From IMG/VR virus record IMGVR_UViG_2531839239_000026: a DNA stretch of 9,175 nt, one strand, 5' to 3'. The translations under genes and the position numbers were made by a program. The notes under the pieces were generated by a model that was not told where the DNA came from, made no database searches, and was given only the letters and a program-made list of their open reading frames with translations. Each line of letters begins with the position of its first letter. The stretch's first letter is position 1. This DNA is from a virus. Lineage: Duplodnaviria; Heunggongvirae; Uroviricota; Caudoviricetes. Below are positions 5,838 through 9,012 of the stretch, piece after piece.

Positions 5838-6008
5838 TTAAAGTTCATGTGCCATCTGGTCTTTTTCGGCACAAGCTTCACTGCAATATTTTCTCGGTTC
5901 GTCTTTTGATAAAATCCCGTGCATGAAGTGAAGCATTCTTTCAATAGCTTTGCTTTCTTCAACGTCTTTTTTGCAAAGGTGGTAAGCACATTTTATTTTC
6001 TTAGTCAT
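5838..6008 (-). CDS. ydaE: YdaE-like small Cys-rich (metal-binding) protein, 56 aa
   Basis: Not in the ORF track because it is under 60 aa. My translation from ATG 6008: [56 protein letters not shown], stop TAA at 5840..5838. ATG overlaps the kilR TGA (ATGA). Confidence 0.7.
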   Translation of the reverse strand: MTKKIKCAYHLCKKDVEESKAIERMLHFMHGILSKDEPRKYCSEACAEKDQMAHEL

Positions 6009-6229
6009 CACCATGACTCCGCCTTTACAGGTAAACCATCACGACCGAGGAAGACTTTAATCATGCGGTCAGTAATGCATGTTTTTGTGGTCAGGTTACG
6101 AATATATAGTTTTCGCTTTTTAATATTGTTTGCCGAGGCAATATATGTCCGGCCTTCATGAAGAACATAATCGCCAGGAGTCACACACTGACGTGGTATT
6201 TCATCAGTTCCGAAGTGATGTGCAATCAT
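6008..6229 (-). CDS. kilR: KilR-like killing / cell-division inhibitor protein, 73 aa
   Basis: Track ORF 6008..6241 trimmed to ATG 6229 ([14 protein letters not shown]...), preceded by GGAG 8 nt upstream. Confidence 0.8.
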
Positions 6230-6410
6230 AATTATCTCCATTTTTACAAATGAACTTTGTTGATGCGGTGCCTGGTGCCTCCAGGTGACTGCAACCAGTT
6301 AACAATTACAGTCGGCTTTCCCACCCAAACCAATAAGGACTAACATGACTTTTAACTGTGCCACGTGCGCTTAGCCGCATTCACCGCATCACAAAATTCA
6401 CTTTAAAAAG

Positions 6411-6452
6411 GGCGGACATCAGCCGAACTTCAAGAAAAAAACTGATGCCGCC
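6411..6452. other. Long interrupted inverted repeat in the kilR-sieB intergenic region
   Basis: GGCGGACATCAG (6411-6422) and CTGATGCCGCC (6442-6452) form an 11-bp stem with one bulged A around a 19-nt A-rich loop. On the minus strand it is followed by CTTTTTAAA. Confidence 0.3.
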
Positions 6453-6627
6453 AGGACTACACACAGCAATGTCGTTATTTACAACCGGAGGCGCACTCCC
6501 ACCATTTAAATTTAACAGACAAGACCGACTCTTTATGGATATCGGAAATGCGCCTTCGTGTTGTGCCCGGTTTTATTTCACCACCTCCGGGCTTCGGTGG
6601 TCTCGGCTATACCCCTACAGCGAGAGC

Positions 6628-7321: not shown

Positions 7322-7456
7322 TCACATCTTGTTGCTACGTATAGCGACTTCTGCCTGCCAGAGATCCCAGTCGTTGCTGCGTAAAGCCTGCACAGCCTGG
7401 TTGTAAGTGATACCGCAACAATCCATCAAATACTGAACTACTTCGTAATGCACCAT
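7322..7456 (-). CDS. ydaG: YdaG-like small protein, 44 aa
   Basis: Not in the ORF track. My translation from ATG 7456: MVHYEVVQYLMDCCGITYNQAVQALRSNDWDLWQAEVAIRSNKM, stop TGA 7324..7322. A GGGGA SD-like element lies upstream. Confidence 0.65.
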   Translation of the reverse strand: MVHYEVVQYLMDCCGITYNQAVQALRSNDWDLWQAEVAIRSNKM

Positions 7457-7632
7457 CTTATCTATCCCCTTAACGCCGGGTGGCGGAACTAACTGCTGCA
7501 CTGCAAAATTTGAATCCCGCCGTCATGTTCATACGCCTCGGGCTGGCTACTTACCCCCTGACCACTGCTTGGTAACTCGAAGTATTGCCCGGCGTTCTGT
7601 GGGGCGGGGTGGGTGGTTGGTGTATGTAATCT

Positions 7633-7672
7633 ACAATAAAAAACTGTTTTTGTGTCAACAGTTTTTAATTGT
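7633..7672. promoter_or_regulatory. OL-like operator dyad with a leftward -35-like TTGACA in its spacer
   Basis: Left arm ACAATAAAAAACTGTT at 7633-7648, right arm AACAGTTTTTAATTGT at 7657-7672 (one mismatch to a perfect inverted repeat). Spacer TTTGTGTC reads TTGACA on the minus strand (7658..7653). The 16-mer left arm is identical to 8668-8683. Confidence 0.45.
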
Positions 7673-7682
7673 TGTTTTGGGC

Positions 7683-7705
7683 AAAAAAATCCCTCGAAAG
7701 AGGGA
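7683..7705 (-). terminator. Candidate intrinsic terminator downstream of parE
   Basis: Minus-strand RNA folds as UCCCUC-UUUC-GAGGGA (6-bp stem, 7690-7695 with 7700-7705) followed by seven U (plus-strand A-run 7683-7689). It starts 18 nt after the parE stop. Confidence 0.4.
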
Positions 7706-7723
7706 GTATGAAAATTGTTCAAC

Positions 7724-8011
7724 TCAGATAGAGAAGGGAAATTGTCGCCGAGAATGTGTCACGCTTACAATCTCAATGCTTGAAGCAGCTACTCTGTACA
7801 GGATTATGTAGTTAGGGTGGGTCACGATCTCTCTCAATCCAGAAACCCGTTCGCTTGGTGGATATAAGTACGGATGCTCAGATAGAGGTAATACCGATGT
7901 TTCAATGCGTATTTTTAGTCTACGTGCTGCCGGTGGGTTCTCCTTGGCGATGTAAGTTATGATCTGGCGCAAATCATCGCGAGCAGACGGTAGCCATAAA
8001 ATGGGTAACAT
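7724..8011 (-). CDS. parE: ParE/RelE-superfamily toxin (ParE-like), 95 aa
   Basis: Track ORF 7724..8011 (-). The C-terminal region ...LREIVTHPNYIILYRVAASSIEIVSVTHSRRQFP resembles the ParE/RelE fold signature. Start ATG overlaps the upstream gene's stop (TAATG), indicating translational coupling in toxin-after-antitoxin order. Confidence 0.75.
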   Translation of the reverse strand: MLPILWLPSARDDLRQIITYIAKENPPAARRLKIRIETSVLPLSEHPYLYPPSERVSGLREIVTHPNYIILYRVAASSIEIVSVTHSRRQFPFSI

Positions 8012-8202
8012 TACTCGCTCTTGTTAGTTACAGCAATTTGAGCAATAAGATTTTCCATTTCAGCCATTACCTCGTCATGTGGAATTGCGGGGCGAGTGTC
8101 TGCAAGGCTTGACGTTACTTTAGTGCGCAACCATTCGTTGTAACTGTTTTCTTGTTCGGTAGTTTCGAATTCTGAAACTATCGGAGAAAGGGCTGTACCC
8201 AT
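8011..8202 (-). CDS. paaA: Small antitoxin, PaaA-like partner of ParE, 63 aa
   Basis: Track ORF 8011..8202 (-), MGTALSPIVSEFETTEQENSYNEWLRTKV..., preceded by a strong SD (GAGGAG, 7-nt spacer). Small and acidic, immediately upstream of and coupled to the ParE-like gene. Resembles the PaaA2 antitoxin of the three-component paaR2-paaA2-parE2 system from my recall. Confidence 0.6.
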   Translation of the reverse strand: MGTALSPIVSEFETTEQENSYNEWLRTKVTSSLADTRPAIPHDEVMAEMENLIAQIAVTNKSE

Positions 8203-8229
8203 GGCATAACTCCTCTTCTTGTACTGTGG

Positions 8230-8631
8230 TCACGCCCGGCGGCTTTTTTGTGCCGCCAGCCACCTAGCAATGGTTTCTTCCATTGATTTTTTCTTGTCTT
8301 TGATTTCTTGAAGCATTTTTTCTTGGTCTTCCTCAGGAAACGCACTAAAAGCTTGGAGCAGTTCGCGTTGGCGAGGACCAATTTTCATCGTGTCAGGGGT
8401 GAAAATTTGCTCACACTCTTCAGGAGGCAATAAAAACCAATGCAATGGATGCCCTGAAACCTCAACCAGTTTATCCAAACTTGAGGCTTTAGGTGTAGCC
8501 TTACCGCTGACCCATTGTTGAACAGTTTGTTGTGTCACACCAATTCTACGGGCAAGCTCAGCCTGGCTCCATCCAGTTTCCTGAAGAAGCTTGCTGATTC
8601 TGTACATAGATACTTCTAGGGCGCTCATCAT
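8230..8631 (-). CDS. cI-like / PaaR-like HTH (XRE-family) repressor, 133 aa
   Basis: Track ORF 8230..8631 (-). HTH region ...SQAELARRIGVTQQTVQQWVSGKATPK... No LexA/S24-type peptidase C-terminal domain is apparent. Divergent from the Cro-like gene across the dyad-containing intergenic region. No SD precedes the ATG. Confidence 0.75.
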   Translation of the reverse strand: MMSALEVSMYRISKLLQETGWSQAELARRIGVTQQTVQQWVSGKATPKASSLDKLVEVSGHPLHWFLLPPEECEQIFTPDTMKIGPRQRELLQAFSAFPEEDQEKMLQEIKDKKKSMEETIARWLAAQKSRRA

Positions 8632-8667
8632 TATTCAATTTTACAGGTAAATACTGTTAAAAGCATC

Positions 8668-8706
8668 ACAATAAAAAACTGTTGATTGCATACAGTTTTT
8701 TATTGT
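8668..8706. promoter_or_regulatory. OR-like operator dyad between the divergent repressor and cro-like genes
   Basis: Perfect 15-bp inverted repeat: ACAATAAAAAACTGT at 8668-8682 and ACAGTTTTTTATTGT at 8692-8706, separated by TGATTGCAT. The spacer carries rightward -35-like TTGATT/TTGCAT hexamers. The left arm is the same 16-mer as 7633-7648. Confidence 0.5.
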
Positions 8707-8739
8707 AGGCTTTGCTTATAGTTTTTAGAGGAGGGCAAA

Positions 8740-9012
8740 ATGCTAGATAGCACTCGCGAAAAAATTAGGCAGAAATACACTCAGGCTGAAATAGGTCGTT
8801 ATATGGGGGTCGCTCAACAGACTGTTTGGCAATGGTTTAGCTTTGGCGTTCCCCCAAAGCAGGTAATTCCGTTATGCCAACTAATGAAGTGGGAAGTTAC
8901 CCCGCATGAAATCCGCCCAGATATTTATCCTAACCCAACCGACGGTTTACCTGTTGGATGTAAGGTTAACACATCAAATGCGCCGGAGTTGATTCATGAA
9001 AATCAAGCATGA
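8740..9012 (+). CDS. ydaS: Cro-like HTH regulator (YdaS family), 90 aa
   Basis: Track ORF 8740..9012 (+), MLDSTREKIRQKYTQAEIGRYMGVAQQTVWQWF... HTH-like region, GGAGG SD with a 4-nt spacer. Sits in the cro position, divergent from the repressor. Confidence 0.7.
   Translation: MLDSTREKIRQKYTQAEIGRYMGVAQQTVWQWFSFGVPPKQVIPLCQLMKWEVTPHEIRPDIYPNPTDGLPVGCKVNTSNAPELIHENQA

Follow-up and report, generated by a model that had tools for sequence, protein, structure and literature searches.

The window analysed here is the whole of a 9,175-nucleotide (nt) stretch of caudoviral DNA (IMG/VR record IMGVR_UViG_2531839239_000026). The elements under study are two near-identical inverted repeats (dyads) of ~40 base pairs (bp) that bracket a repressor-antitoxin-toxin operon within it, and which we examined as candidate left (OL) and right (OR) operators of an immunity switch. 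The window comprises the immunity region of a Rac-type lambdoid prophage together with its left arm, and carries intR, recT, recE, sieB and DUF1391/ydaF. Three consecutive open reading frames (ORFs) on the minus strand encode, in order, an HTH_3 regulator, a PaaA2 antitoxin and a ParE toxin, as classified by Pfam. The ydaS (8740-9012) and ydaT (from 8996) genes diverge from this operon, and the divergent intergenic region between repressor and ydaS is 108 bp long. The genes concerned and the terminator of the operon are:

7683 to 7705, minus strand: intrinsic terminator at the end of the repressor-antitoxin-toxin operon, with its stem at 7705-7690 and its T-run at 7689-7683

7724 to 8011, minus strand: ParE-family toxin gene (Pfam ParE_toxin, E = 2.9e-17)

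8011 to 8202, minus strand: PaaA2-family antitoxin gene (Pfam PaaA2, E = 5.6e-19)

8230 to 8631, minus strand: gene for a CI-like repressor of 133 amino acids (aa) (Pfam HTH_3), with a 434-like helix-turn-helix (HTH) head at residues ~4-67 and a PaaR2-like helical tail at ~86-132

8740 to 9012, plus strand: YdaS/Cro-like gene (Pfam YdaS_toxin), with a recognition helix that starts with QQ (AQQTVWQ)

This immunity region is common. From position 7465 on, the window is 99% identical to a second prophage of Escherichia coli O157:H7, adjoining yccA; PMC8630535 mentions a CP-933M homologue of paaR2-paaA2-parE2, and this prophage probably carries it. A literature search on PaaR1/CP-933M operators yielded nothing usable. 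At least 80% of the immunity region (7400-9012) is contained in 509 of 5,426 complete E. coli genomes. Homology to the K-12 Rac type stops at ~7617-7625.

A preliminary description of this DNA had placed the 16-mer ACAATAAAAAACTGTT at 7633-7648 and 8668-8683, in each case as one arm of an inverted repeat, and all of its coordinates proved exact. The inverted partner has one mismatch in the left dyad (7658-7672) and none over 15 bp in the right dyad (8692-8706). As also described, the right copy lies in the repressor/cro divergent region and the left copy just past the operon terminator, 10 bp beyond its T-run; OL and OR are separated by 1035 bp. Each arm is itself a pseudo-palindrome, ACAAT-AAAAA-ACTGT. 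The underlying 15-mer ACAATAAAAAACTGT is present four times, inverted copies included (7633-47, 7658-72, 8668-82 and 8692-8706), and allowing up to three mismatches it is matched five times against 0.73 expected, a count reached in 0/200 dinucleotide shuffles. A scan for ACA-N9-TGT recovered all four arms together with one more site, ACAGGTAAATACTGT (8643-8657), so that the 108-bp interval from 8631 to 8740 holds three. Measured from start to start, neighbouring sites are 25 and 24 bp apart in the right set and 25 bp apart in the left. Adjacent pairs spaced by 23-25 bp were observed three times against 0.004 expected (0/2000 dinucleotide shuffles reached three). Each ~40-bp dyad is accordingly best read as two separate 15-bp operators of the form ACA(A/G)T-N5-A(C/T)TGT, 24-25 bp apart centre to centre. 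The putative operators, given without strand, are:

7633 to 7647: OL1 operator, ACAATAAAAAACTGT, in the spacer between the -35 and -10 of the predicted leftward early promoter (PL)

7658 to 7672: OL2 operator, ACAGTTTTTAATTGT on the plus strand, abutting the PL -35

8643 to 8657: OR3 operator, ACAGGTAAATACTGT on the plus strand, a weaker site with one degenerate half-site, in the spacer of the predicted repressor-maintenance promoter (PRM); 1/15 columns variable among close relatives

8668 to 8682: OR2 operator, ACAATAAAAAACTGT, flanked on one side by the -35 of the predicted rightward early promoter (PR) and on the other by a weak PRM -35 region

8692 to 8706: OR1 operator, ACAGTTTTTTATTGT, in the PR spacer; 0/15 columns variable among close relatives

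One isolated ACA-N9-TGT site, ACAAAGTTCATTTGT, lies elsewhere in the window at 6246-6260, just upstream of a kilR-like ORF (6008-6241) and within a 28-nt inverted repeat (6243-6270 / 6382-6409). It could be a chance occurrence or a stray operator.

Close relatives were collected through the 16-mer, whose occurrence in related immunity regions the preliminary description had proposed to scan. It is found in 112 IMG/VR contigs. In 41 of them a partner site lies at a distance of 22-26 bp and the encoded repressor shares at least 91% identity with that of the window; the remaining 71 have neither partner site nor repressor homologue, and these are chance hits of an A/T-rich word. This division into contigs with both and contigs with neither means that the 16-mer is not a generic intergenic repeat. 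Exactly one three-site and one two-site cluster occur in 40/41 contigs, at a distance of 1009-1037 bp, or of 683 bp where the toxin-antitoxin pair is degraded. Variation among the distinct haplotypes of 42 close relatives shows purifying selection on the operators: 4/75 operator columns are variable, compared to 63/134 other intergenic columns (Fisher p = 5e-11), and omission of OR2, which was ascertained in that the search pattern fixed it, leaves 4/60 (p = 1e-8). The most variable bases of the region in these relatives are those of the OR1-OR2 gap after TTGAT.

More diverged loci were obtained by exact-protein look-ups, as a genome scan with a back-translated repressor pattern, which was too generic, returned only distant HTH proteins from unrelated phyla. 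Five loci with homologous repressors were compared: Salmonella (80% identity), Pluralibacter (69%), Morganella and Klebsiella (68%) and a metagenomic locus (61%). In all five, the repressor/ydaS intergenic region holds three right-hand sites whose offsets equal those in the window, and past the repressor operon there are two ACA-N9-TGT sites with a spacing of 23-25 bp. OR3 is an exact ACA-N9-TGT match at the same position in 5/6 loci, the window included; in Morganella (L090) only two right-hand sites match exactly and OR3 is degenerate (ACAGTTTTTATCGGT). The half-sites are ACAGT or ACAAT, and ACAAG in Klebsiella. The central five to seven bases are A/T-rich without being conserved in sequence, A and T interchanging freely. 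The preliminary description had suggested intrinsic bending from A6/T6 tracts; this finds no support in the comparison, which conserves only the A/T-richness of central, probably uncontacted bases and not the tracts themselves. The symmetry of the large dyad, with 15/15 and 14/15 positions paired in the window and 14/15 in the Morganella OL, also decays elsewhere. In the other loci, arm A matches the reverse complement of arm B at 9-12/15 positions, no better than direct identity, and the Salmonella left element folds as two small hairpins rather than one. Because its symmetry decays in this way, the 40-bp dyad is a lineage-specific by-product of two inverted operator copies with an asymmetric centre.

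Further evidence comes from loci in which the DNA-binding head of the repressor differs. The CP-933P paaR2 locus (L092), located via a published primer sequence, and two other loci (L002 and L087) have homologous parE, paaA and repressor C-terminus but a different N-terminal HTH. In each, OR and OL share a repeat of their own: GTTTAGT-type in CP-933P, AATAGCAnTGCTATT in L002 and CACTTTTAAAGT in L087. When the window is compared with these loci by sliding identity, background levels are reached in two islands only, namely 7615-7740 (the PL -10, OL and terminator) and 8365-8890 (the repressor head, OR and the YdaS head). Identity is 0.7-1.0 between and outside the islands, with parE, paaA and the repressor tail as the homologous stretch that parts them. 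OL thus varies in step with the reading heads despite ~600 bp of conserved DNA between them, and we consider this two-island co-variation the strongest evidence obtainable from sequence alone for OL as an operator of the 8230-8631 repressor. Within the repressor family, Gln34 and Gln35 are invariant and residue 39 varies, with Gln accompanying ACA(G/A)T or ACAAG half-sites, Arg accompanying degenerate positions 4-5 and Lys accompanying a different operator. The YdaS recognition helix starts with QQ in all ACA-type loci and in L087, whose operators are different; it does not in CP-933P or L002.

The same repressor C-terminal tail and toxin-antitoxin pair were found joined to at least three unrelated N-terminal HTH heads, namely that of the window, that of PaaR2 and, in L002, a longer CI-like one (tails compared at window 8230-8400, L092 2501-2872 and L002 3254-3754). 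This indicates that heads have been swapped by recombination inside the repressor gene.

By sequence, the closest solved relatives of the window repressor are N-terminal domains of the phage 434 repressor (E = 3e-5). Its QQTVQQ aligns to QQSIEQ of 434, so that Gln28, Gln29 and Gln33 of 434 correspond to Gln34, Gln35 and Gln39 here. These three 434 glutamines reportedly read the ACAA half-site of the 434 operators; a literature search on 434 contact residues gave no usable result. Over its C-terminal 98 residues the window repressor has 42% identity to PaaR2 (BLASTP, E = 2e-20), most strongly in the last 45 residues, and the N-terminal recognition region is not alignable to PaaR2. An AlphaFold model (predicted local distance difference test, pLDDT, 83) has a five-helix head (residues 4-67), a disordered linker and a helical hairpin (86-132). 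The C-terminal tail had no Foldseek match in PDB, and a sequence search of solved structures returned no PaaR2 chain. Pfam detected no Peptidase_S24, the RecA-stimulated self-cleaving C-terminal domain of lambda and 434 CI, in the 133-aa protein, and from this we infer that induction does not proceed by RecA cleavage.

The operators are interlocked with predicted promoter elements, and the spacer hexamers named in the preliminary description, a minus-strand TTGACA (7658-7653) and a plus-strand TTGATT (8682-8687), were both confirmed. The elements are:

7628 to 7633, minus strand: predicted PL -10, TAGATT, whose first T is the last base of OL1; the TGTAG/TGTAA junction is kept in 6/6 loci

7653 to 7658, minus strand: predicted PL -35, TTGACA, in the OL2/OL1 gap; TTGACx is kept in six loci and invariant in close relatives

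8638 to 8643, minus strand: predicted PRM -10, TAAAAT, separated by 6 nt from the repressor ATG, whose A is at 8631

8682 to 8687, plus strand: predicted PR -35, TTGATT; TTGAC/TTGAT is kept in six loci

8706 to 8711, plus strand: predicted PR -10, TAGGCT, after an 18-nt spacer; TAnnnT follows the TGT of the site in six loci

In both early promoters, the -35 lies in the gap between paired sites and the -10 starts at the last T of the promoter-proximal site. The same junction rule holds in six loci: the upstream site ends in TGT and is followed by TGAC(A/C/T), so that the final T of the site opens the -35, and the downstream site ends in TGT and is followed by AG/AA..T, so that the -10 begins likewise. 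The PL -10 junction is invariant in 36/37 close relatives. The spacer is 18 nt across loci with the exception of the window PL, where it is 19 nt; the majority haplotype has 18 nt at PL. The third right-hand site obeys the same rule, CCTGTAAAAT being followed by 6 nt and then by the repressor ATG. This -10-N6-ATG geometry predicts a leaderless repressor mRNA, and together with the lack of a Shine-Dalgarno sequence at the repressor start it matches CP-933P in sequence. The predicted PL geometry equals that of the annotated phage 434 pL. Transcription would be expected to start near 7621 (minus strand) from PL, near 8718 (plus strand) from PR and at 8631 (minus strand) from PRM. Our promoter calls rest on conservation across loci and on these 434 and CP-933P precedents.

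As side observations, the OL gap in the window is 10 nt (TTTTTGTGTC A, 7648-7657; one extra T), in contrast to 9 nt in most relatives, and belongs to a minority haplotype, and position 6 of the window OL1 is A instead of T. The TTGATT in the right gap was also considered as a YdaT box and rejected, as no AATCAA follows 6 nt on and the hexamer varies to TTGATC in relatives.

We consider it highly likely that the two dyads comprise the OR (OR1 and OR2, with the weaker OR3) and OL (OL1 and OL2) operator sets of a Rac-type lambdoid immunity switch of the lambda/434 type. The preliminary description had already proposed OL/OR-like elements that bracket the repressor operon, each with an outward early promoter, and this proposal is borne out by conservation, by co-variation with the DNA-binding domain and by published CP-933P experiments (PMC8630535). 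One dimer of the CI-like repressor (8230-8631) probably binds each 15-bp operator, and the YdaS/Cro-like protein probably binds the same sites, for which it would compete. OL, 1 kb from OR and just beyond the operon terminator, is placed as in lambda and 434. PR (rightward, toward ydaS-ydaT) and PL (leftward, toward ydaG-ydaF-kilR-recET) would share one geometry, with an operator in the spacer and another abutting the -35, and two neighbouring dimers (OR1+OR2 or OL1+OL2) would block each early promoter. A dimer at OR2 would abut the weak -35 of the leaderless PRM, a position that would permit activation, and OR3 in the PRM spacer would provide autorepression at high repressor levels. Repressor oligomers may bridge OL and OR; this looping is plausible given that the tail is homologous to that of PaaR2, which forms octamers.

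Several points weigh against this interpretation. Octamerisation is known for PaaR2 only. A strict sigma-70 consensus scan, which demanded 16-18 nt spacers and at least 4/6 matches per hexamer, detected none of PR, PL and PRM, as their spacers are 18-19 nt and their -10 hexamers weak. The window carries the minority haplotype with the 19-nt PL spacer, and PL may be weak in it. The variation test drew on relatives that stand close to one another, and the search pattern itself had ascertained OR2. Foldseek against PDB recovered a generic XRE fold only, in which 434 ranks 9th.

Four other explanations were weighed. The preliminary description had the ~40-bp dyad bound by a single dimer, and a reading in which it is one binding unit, contacted by a single dimer or a symmetric oligomer via A-tract arms with bending essential, draws on the arm complementarity of 15/15 and 14/15 in the window and 14/15 in the Morganella OL. 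We judge it improbable. The 9-12/15 complementarity of the other loci does not exceed direct identity, A and T replace each other freely among the central bases, the ACA...TGT symmetry is retained within each single 15-mer, an isolated third site (overlooked in that description) stands at OR, and a span of 39 bp is about twice the coverage of an XRE/434-type dimer (14 bp in 434). The arms that had been called unusually long are simply whole operators. The dyads could instead act in RNA, as hairpins or bidirectional terminators that insulate the toxin-antitoxin operon. As single strands the dyads have folding energies of -12 to -17 kcal/mol, with z from -3 to -5, and the left dyad adjoins the operon terminator. 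However, the predicted PR, PL and PRM starts all lie outside the dyads, which would be transcribed by read-through only; the stems are almost pure A-U, with the real G+C-rich terminator upstream at 7683-7705; and the large hairpin is not conserved, the Salmonella OL forming two small ones. This explanation is the least credible of the four. Rfam gave no match at E <= 1 at the dyads or in the PL leader described below.

Nor do we give much credence to the repeats as terminal inverted repeats or recombination sites of a mobile repressor-antitoxin-toxin cassette, even though the operon lies between the halves of a perfect 17-nt inverted repeat (7631-7647 / 8692-8708) and mosaic boundaries adjoin the left dyad. 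The extra bases of the 17-mer (CTACA/TGTAG) are the -10 junction shared by PL and PR, neither a target-site duplication nor a transposase was found, and the same layout, with its third site at OR, surrounds different cargo. Moreover, the region that differs between immunity types forms two separate islands, not one repeat-bounded cassette. It is similarly very improbable that the operators serve mainly the YdaS/Cro-like protein or one of the host's nucleoid proteins (H-NS, Fis or IHF) rather than the CI-like repressor. The A/T-rich sites, the QQ recognition helix of YdaS in all ACA-type loci and the footprinting of the same region by both proteins in CP-933P are in its favour, but the invariant part of each site is its ACA...TGT ends and not the A/T-rich centre, and operator type follows the repressor head, including residue 39 (which aligns with Gln33 of 434). 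Sharing of sites by repressor and Cro is in any case the norm, and belongs to the preferred explanation of the dyads as OR and OL operator sets rather than forming a true alternative to it.

A variable cargo slot was observed between the repressor gene and OL, at 7724-8202 in the window, 2903-3480 in L083, 2903-4080 in L085, 2897-3005 in L090 and 7964-8170 in L138. It contains PaaA-ParE in E. coli, an unrelated ORF of 112-120 aa in Salmonella and two other ORFs in Klebsiella; it is empty in Morganella and holds a degraded toxin-antitoxin pair in some viral contigs. The slot is thus a general cargo site, and the ParE toxin-antitoxin pair is one passenger among several. The bracketed operon had been described as repressor-toxin, which is apt for the PaaA-ParE pair here and does not extend to other loci, where the cargo consists of other genes or is missing.

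Tentatively, and with more doubt than confidence, we propose that the repressor is a chimera in which a 434-type head is joined to a PaaR-type oligomerisation tail unrelated to the C-domain of lambda/434 CI, that it loops OL and OR (~1 kb) around the variable cargo slot, occupied here by PaaA-ParE, and that new immunity types would arise by coordinated replacement of two islands (OL; head-OR-head) around a conserved tail-toxin-antitoxin core. The loci in any case provide natural head/operator pairs for dissecting specificity in a 434-like helix (Gln39 versus Arg/Lys; ACAGT versus ACAAG).

Two additional features flank the switch:

7441 to 7620, minus strand: conserved leader of the PL transcript predicted here, which extends into a small ydaG-like ORF; 80-96% identical in loci with unrelated operators

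8989 to 9006, no strand assigned: YdaT (CII-like) box TTGATT-CATGAA-AATCAA, with the ydaT start codon (8996) in its spacer

The leader marks the point where homology between immunity types resumes. Its 105-160 nt (7460-7620, minus strand) begin right at the predicted PL start and are 75-96% identical over at least seven immunity/operator types from four genera, including E. coli, Salmonella, Pluralibacter, Morganella and an Actinobacillus phage. RNAalifold predicts two hairpins with five compensatory pairs and an invariant core, TAAGTAGCCAGCC(C/T)GAGGC. In phage Tritos, whose operator repeats resemble those of HK022, the leader sits where HK022 has putL. No sequence similarity to HK022 putL was found, nor any second copy of the leader downstream of PR. 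The invariant ~105 nt could be an undescribed cis-acting RNA at the HK022 putL position; a put-like role is speculative.

The YdaT box is identical to the published CP-933P YdaT site, TTGATT-N6-AATCAA (PMC9986795; PMC11879457). A perfect box at the ydaT start implies a putative leftward promoter, similar to the repressor-establishment promoter (PRE), inside the end of ydaS. In the left arm, Rfam identified a full-length RalA antitoxin small RNA (225 bits) at 1557-1735 on the plus strand, and sub-threshold matches upstream of the kilR-like ORF to DicF (39 bits, gathering threshold 48; 6410-6465, minus strand) and STnc100 (35.5 bits, gathering threshold 47; 6222-6408, minus strand).

Of the closest known systems, CP-933P has the same architecture. 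PaaR2 and YdaS footprint its intergenic region and repress all three reporter promoters, PR933P, PRM933P and PL933P (PMC8630535). PL933P, with three operators beyond parE2, is repressed ~100-fold by PaaR2 and YdaS (PMC8630535; Jurenas et al. 2021), and the PL933P fragment falls in the interval from the parE2 stop to the conserved leader, so that by position it corresponds exactly to the left dyad in the window. PaaR2 is octameric in solution, and its gene is leaderless, with the PRM start mapped by 5'RACE (PMC8630535). A basal PRM933P signal ~4-fold higher was attributed to leaky PaaR2 and read as activation at low PaaR2 (PMC8630535); such activation is weak, and was inferred from leaky expression. 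The window and CP-933P share the order of regulator, PaaA antitoxin and ParE toxin, the divergent ydaS-ydaT, the YdaT box, the homologous repressor tail and a distal operator/promoter set between the parE terminator and the conserved leader; at PRM, GATAAT-6 nt-ATG in CP-933P corresponds to TAAAAT-6 nt-ATG here. They differ in the DNA-binding head and all operators, which are unrelated, being GTTTAGT-type (consensus GTTTAGTAA) in CP-933P and ACA-N9-TGT here. The CP-933P locus has no ACA-N9-TGT site and the window none of the CP-933P operator repeats, and with head and operators unrelated the two types would be expected to be heteroimmune. For CP-933P, four 18-bp repeats or three operators were proposed at OR and three at OL (PMC8630535), the latter giving 3 + 3 as opposed to 3 + 2 here. 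The window prophage also has a Rac-like left arm (intR, recET, sieB), unlike CP-933P.

Phage 434, whose operators (ACAA/ACAG-N6-TTGT) we read from its annotated record, is another of the closest known systems. It shares the ACA(A/G)...TTGT ends, the A/T-rich centre and the 9-nt gaps between sites, a pL with its -35 starting at the last T of OL2 and its -10 at the end of OL1, and a pRM at which OR2 abuts the -35 and OR3 fills the spacer. It also provides the closest solved DNA-binding domain by sequence, with a conserved QQxxxQ helix. The 434 operators are 14 bp (ACAA-N6-TTGT) rather than 15 bp, and there are three OL sites rather than two. PR in the window is shifted by one site, and the window repressor has a PaaR-type tail instead of a RecA-cleavable S24 domain. 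The 434 pRM leader has a ribosome-binding site whereas a leaderless mRNA is predicted here, and the cargo is hex rather than a toxin-antitoxin pair.

Lambda resembles the window in its three OR sites with 24-25 bp centre spacing, its leaderless repressor gene (predicted here), an OL just past the repressor-operon terminator and variable cargo (rexAB in lambda) between the repressor gene and OL. Its OL and OR lie ~2.4 kb apart, compared to ~1.0 kb here, its repressor family and operator sequence are different, and no N or nut sites were seen in the window. The lambda CI octamer loops DNA, whereas looping in the window is a prediction. K-12 Rac shares the left prophage backbone, the leader conserved up to window position ~7620, and ydaT with its box; it differs in that RacR is another repressor with other operators and in its lack of toxin-antitoxin cargo. 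The known picture of lambdoid switches is unchanged by these comparisons. The architecture has already been published for CP-933P, and new here are the operator definition, the 434-like specificity, the two-island co-variation and the resolution of each dyad into two operators.

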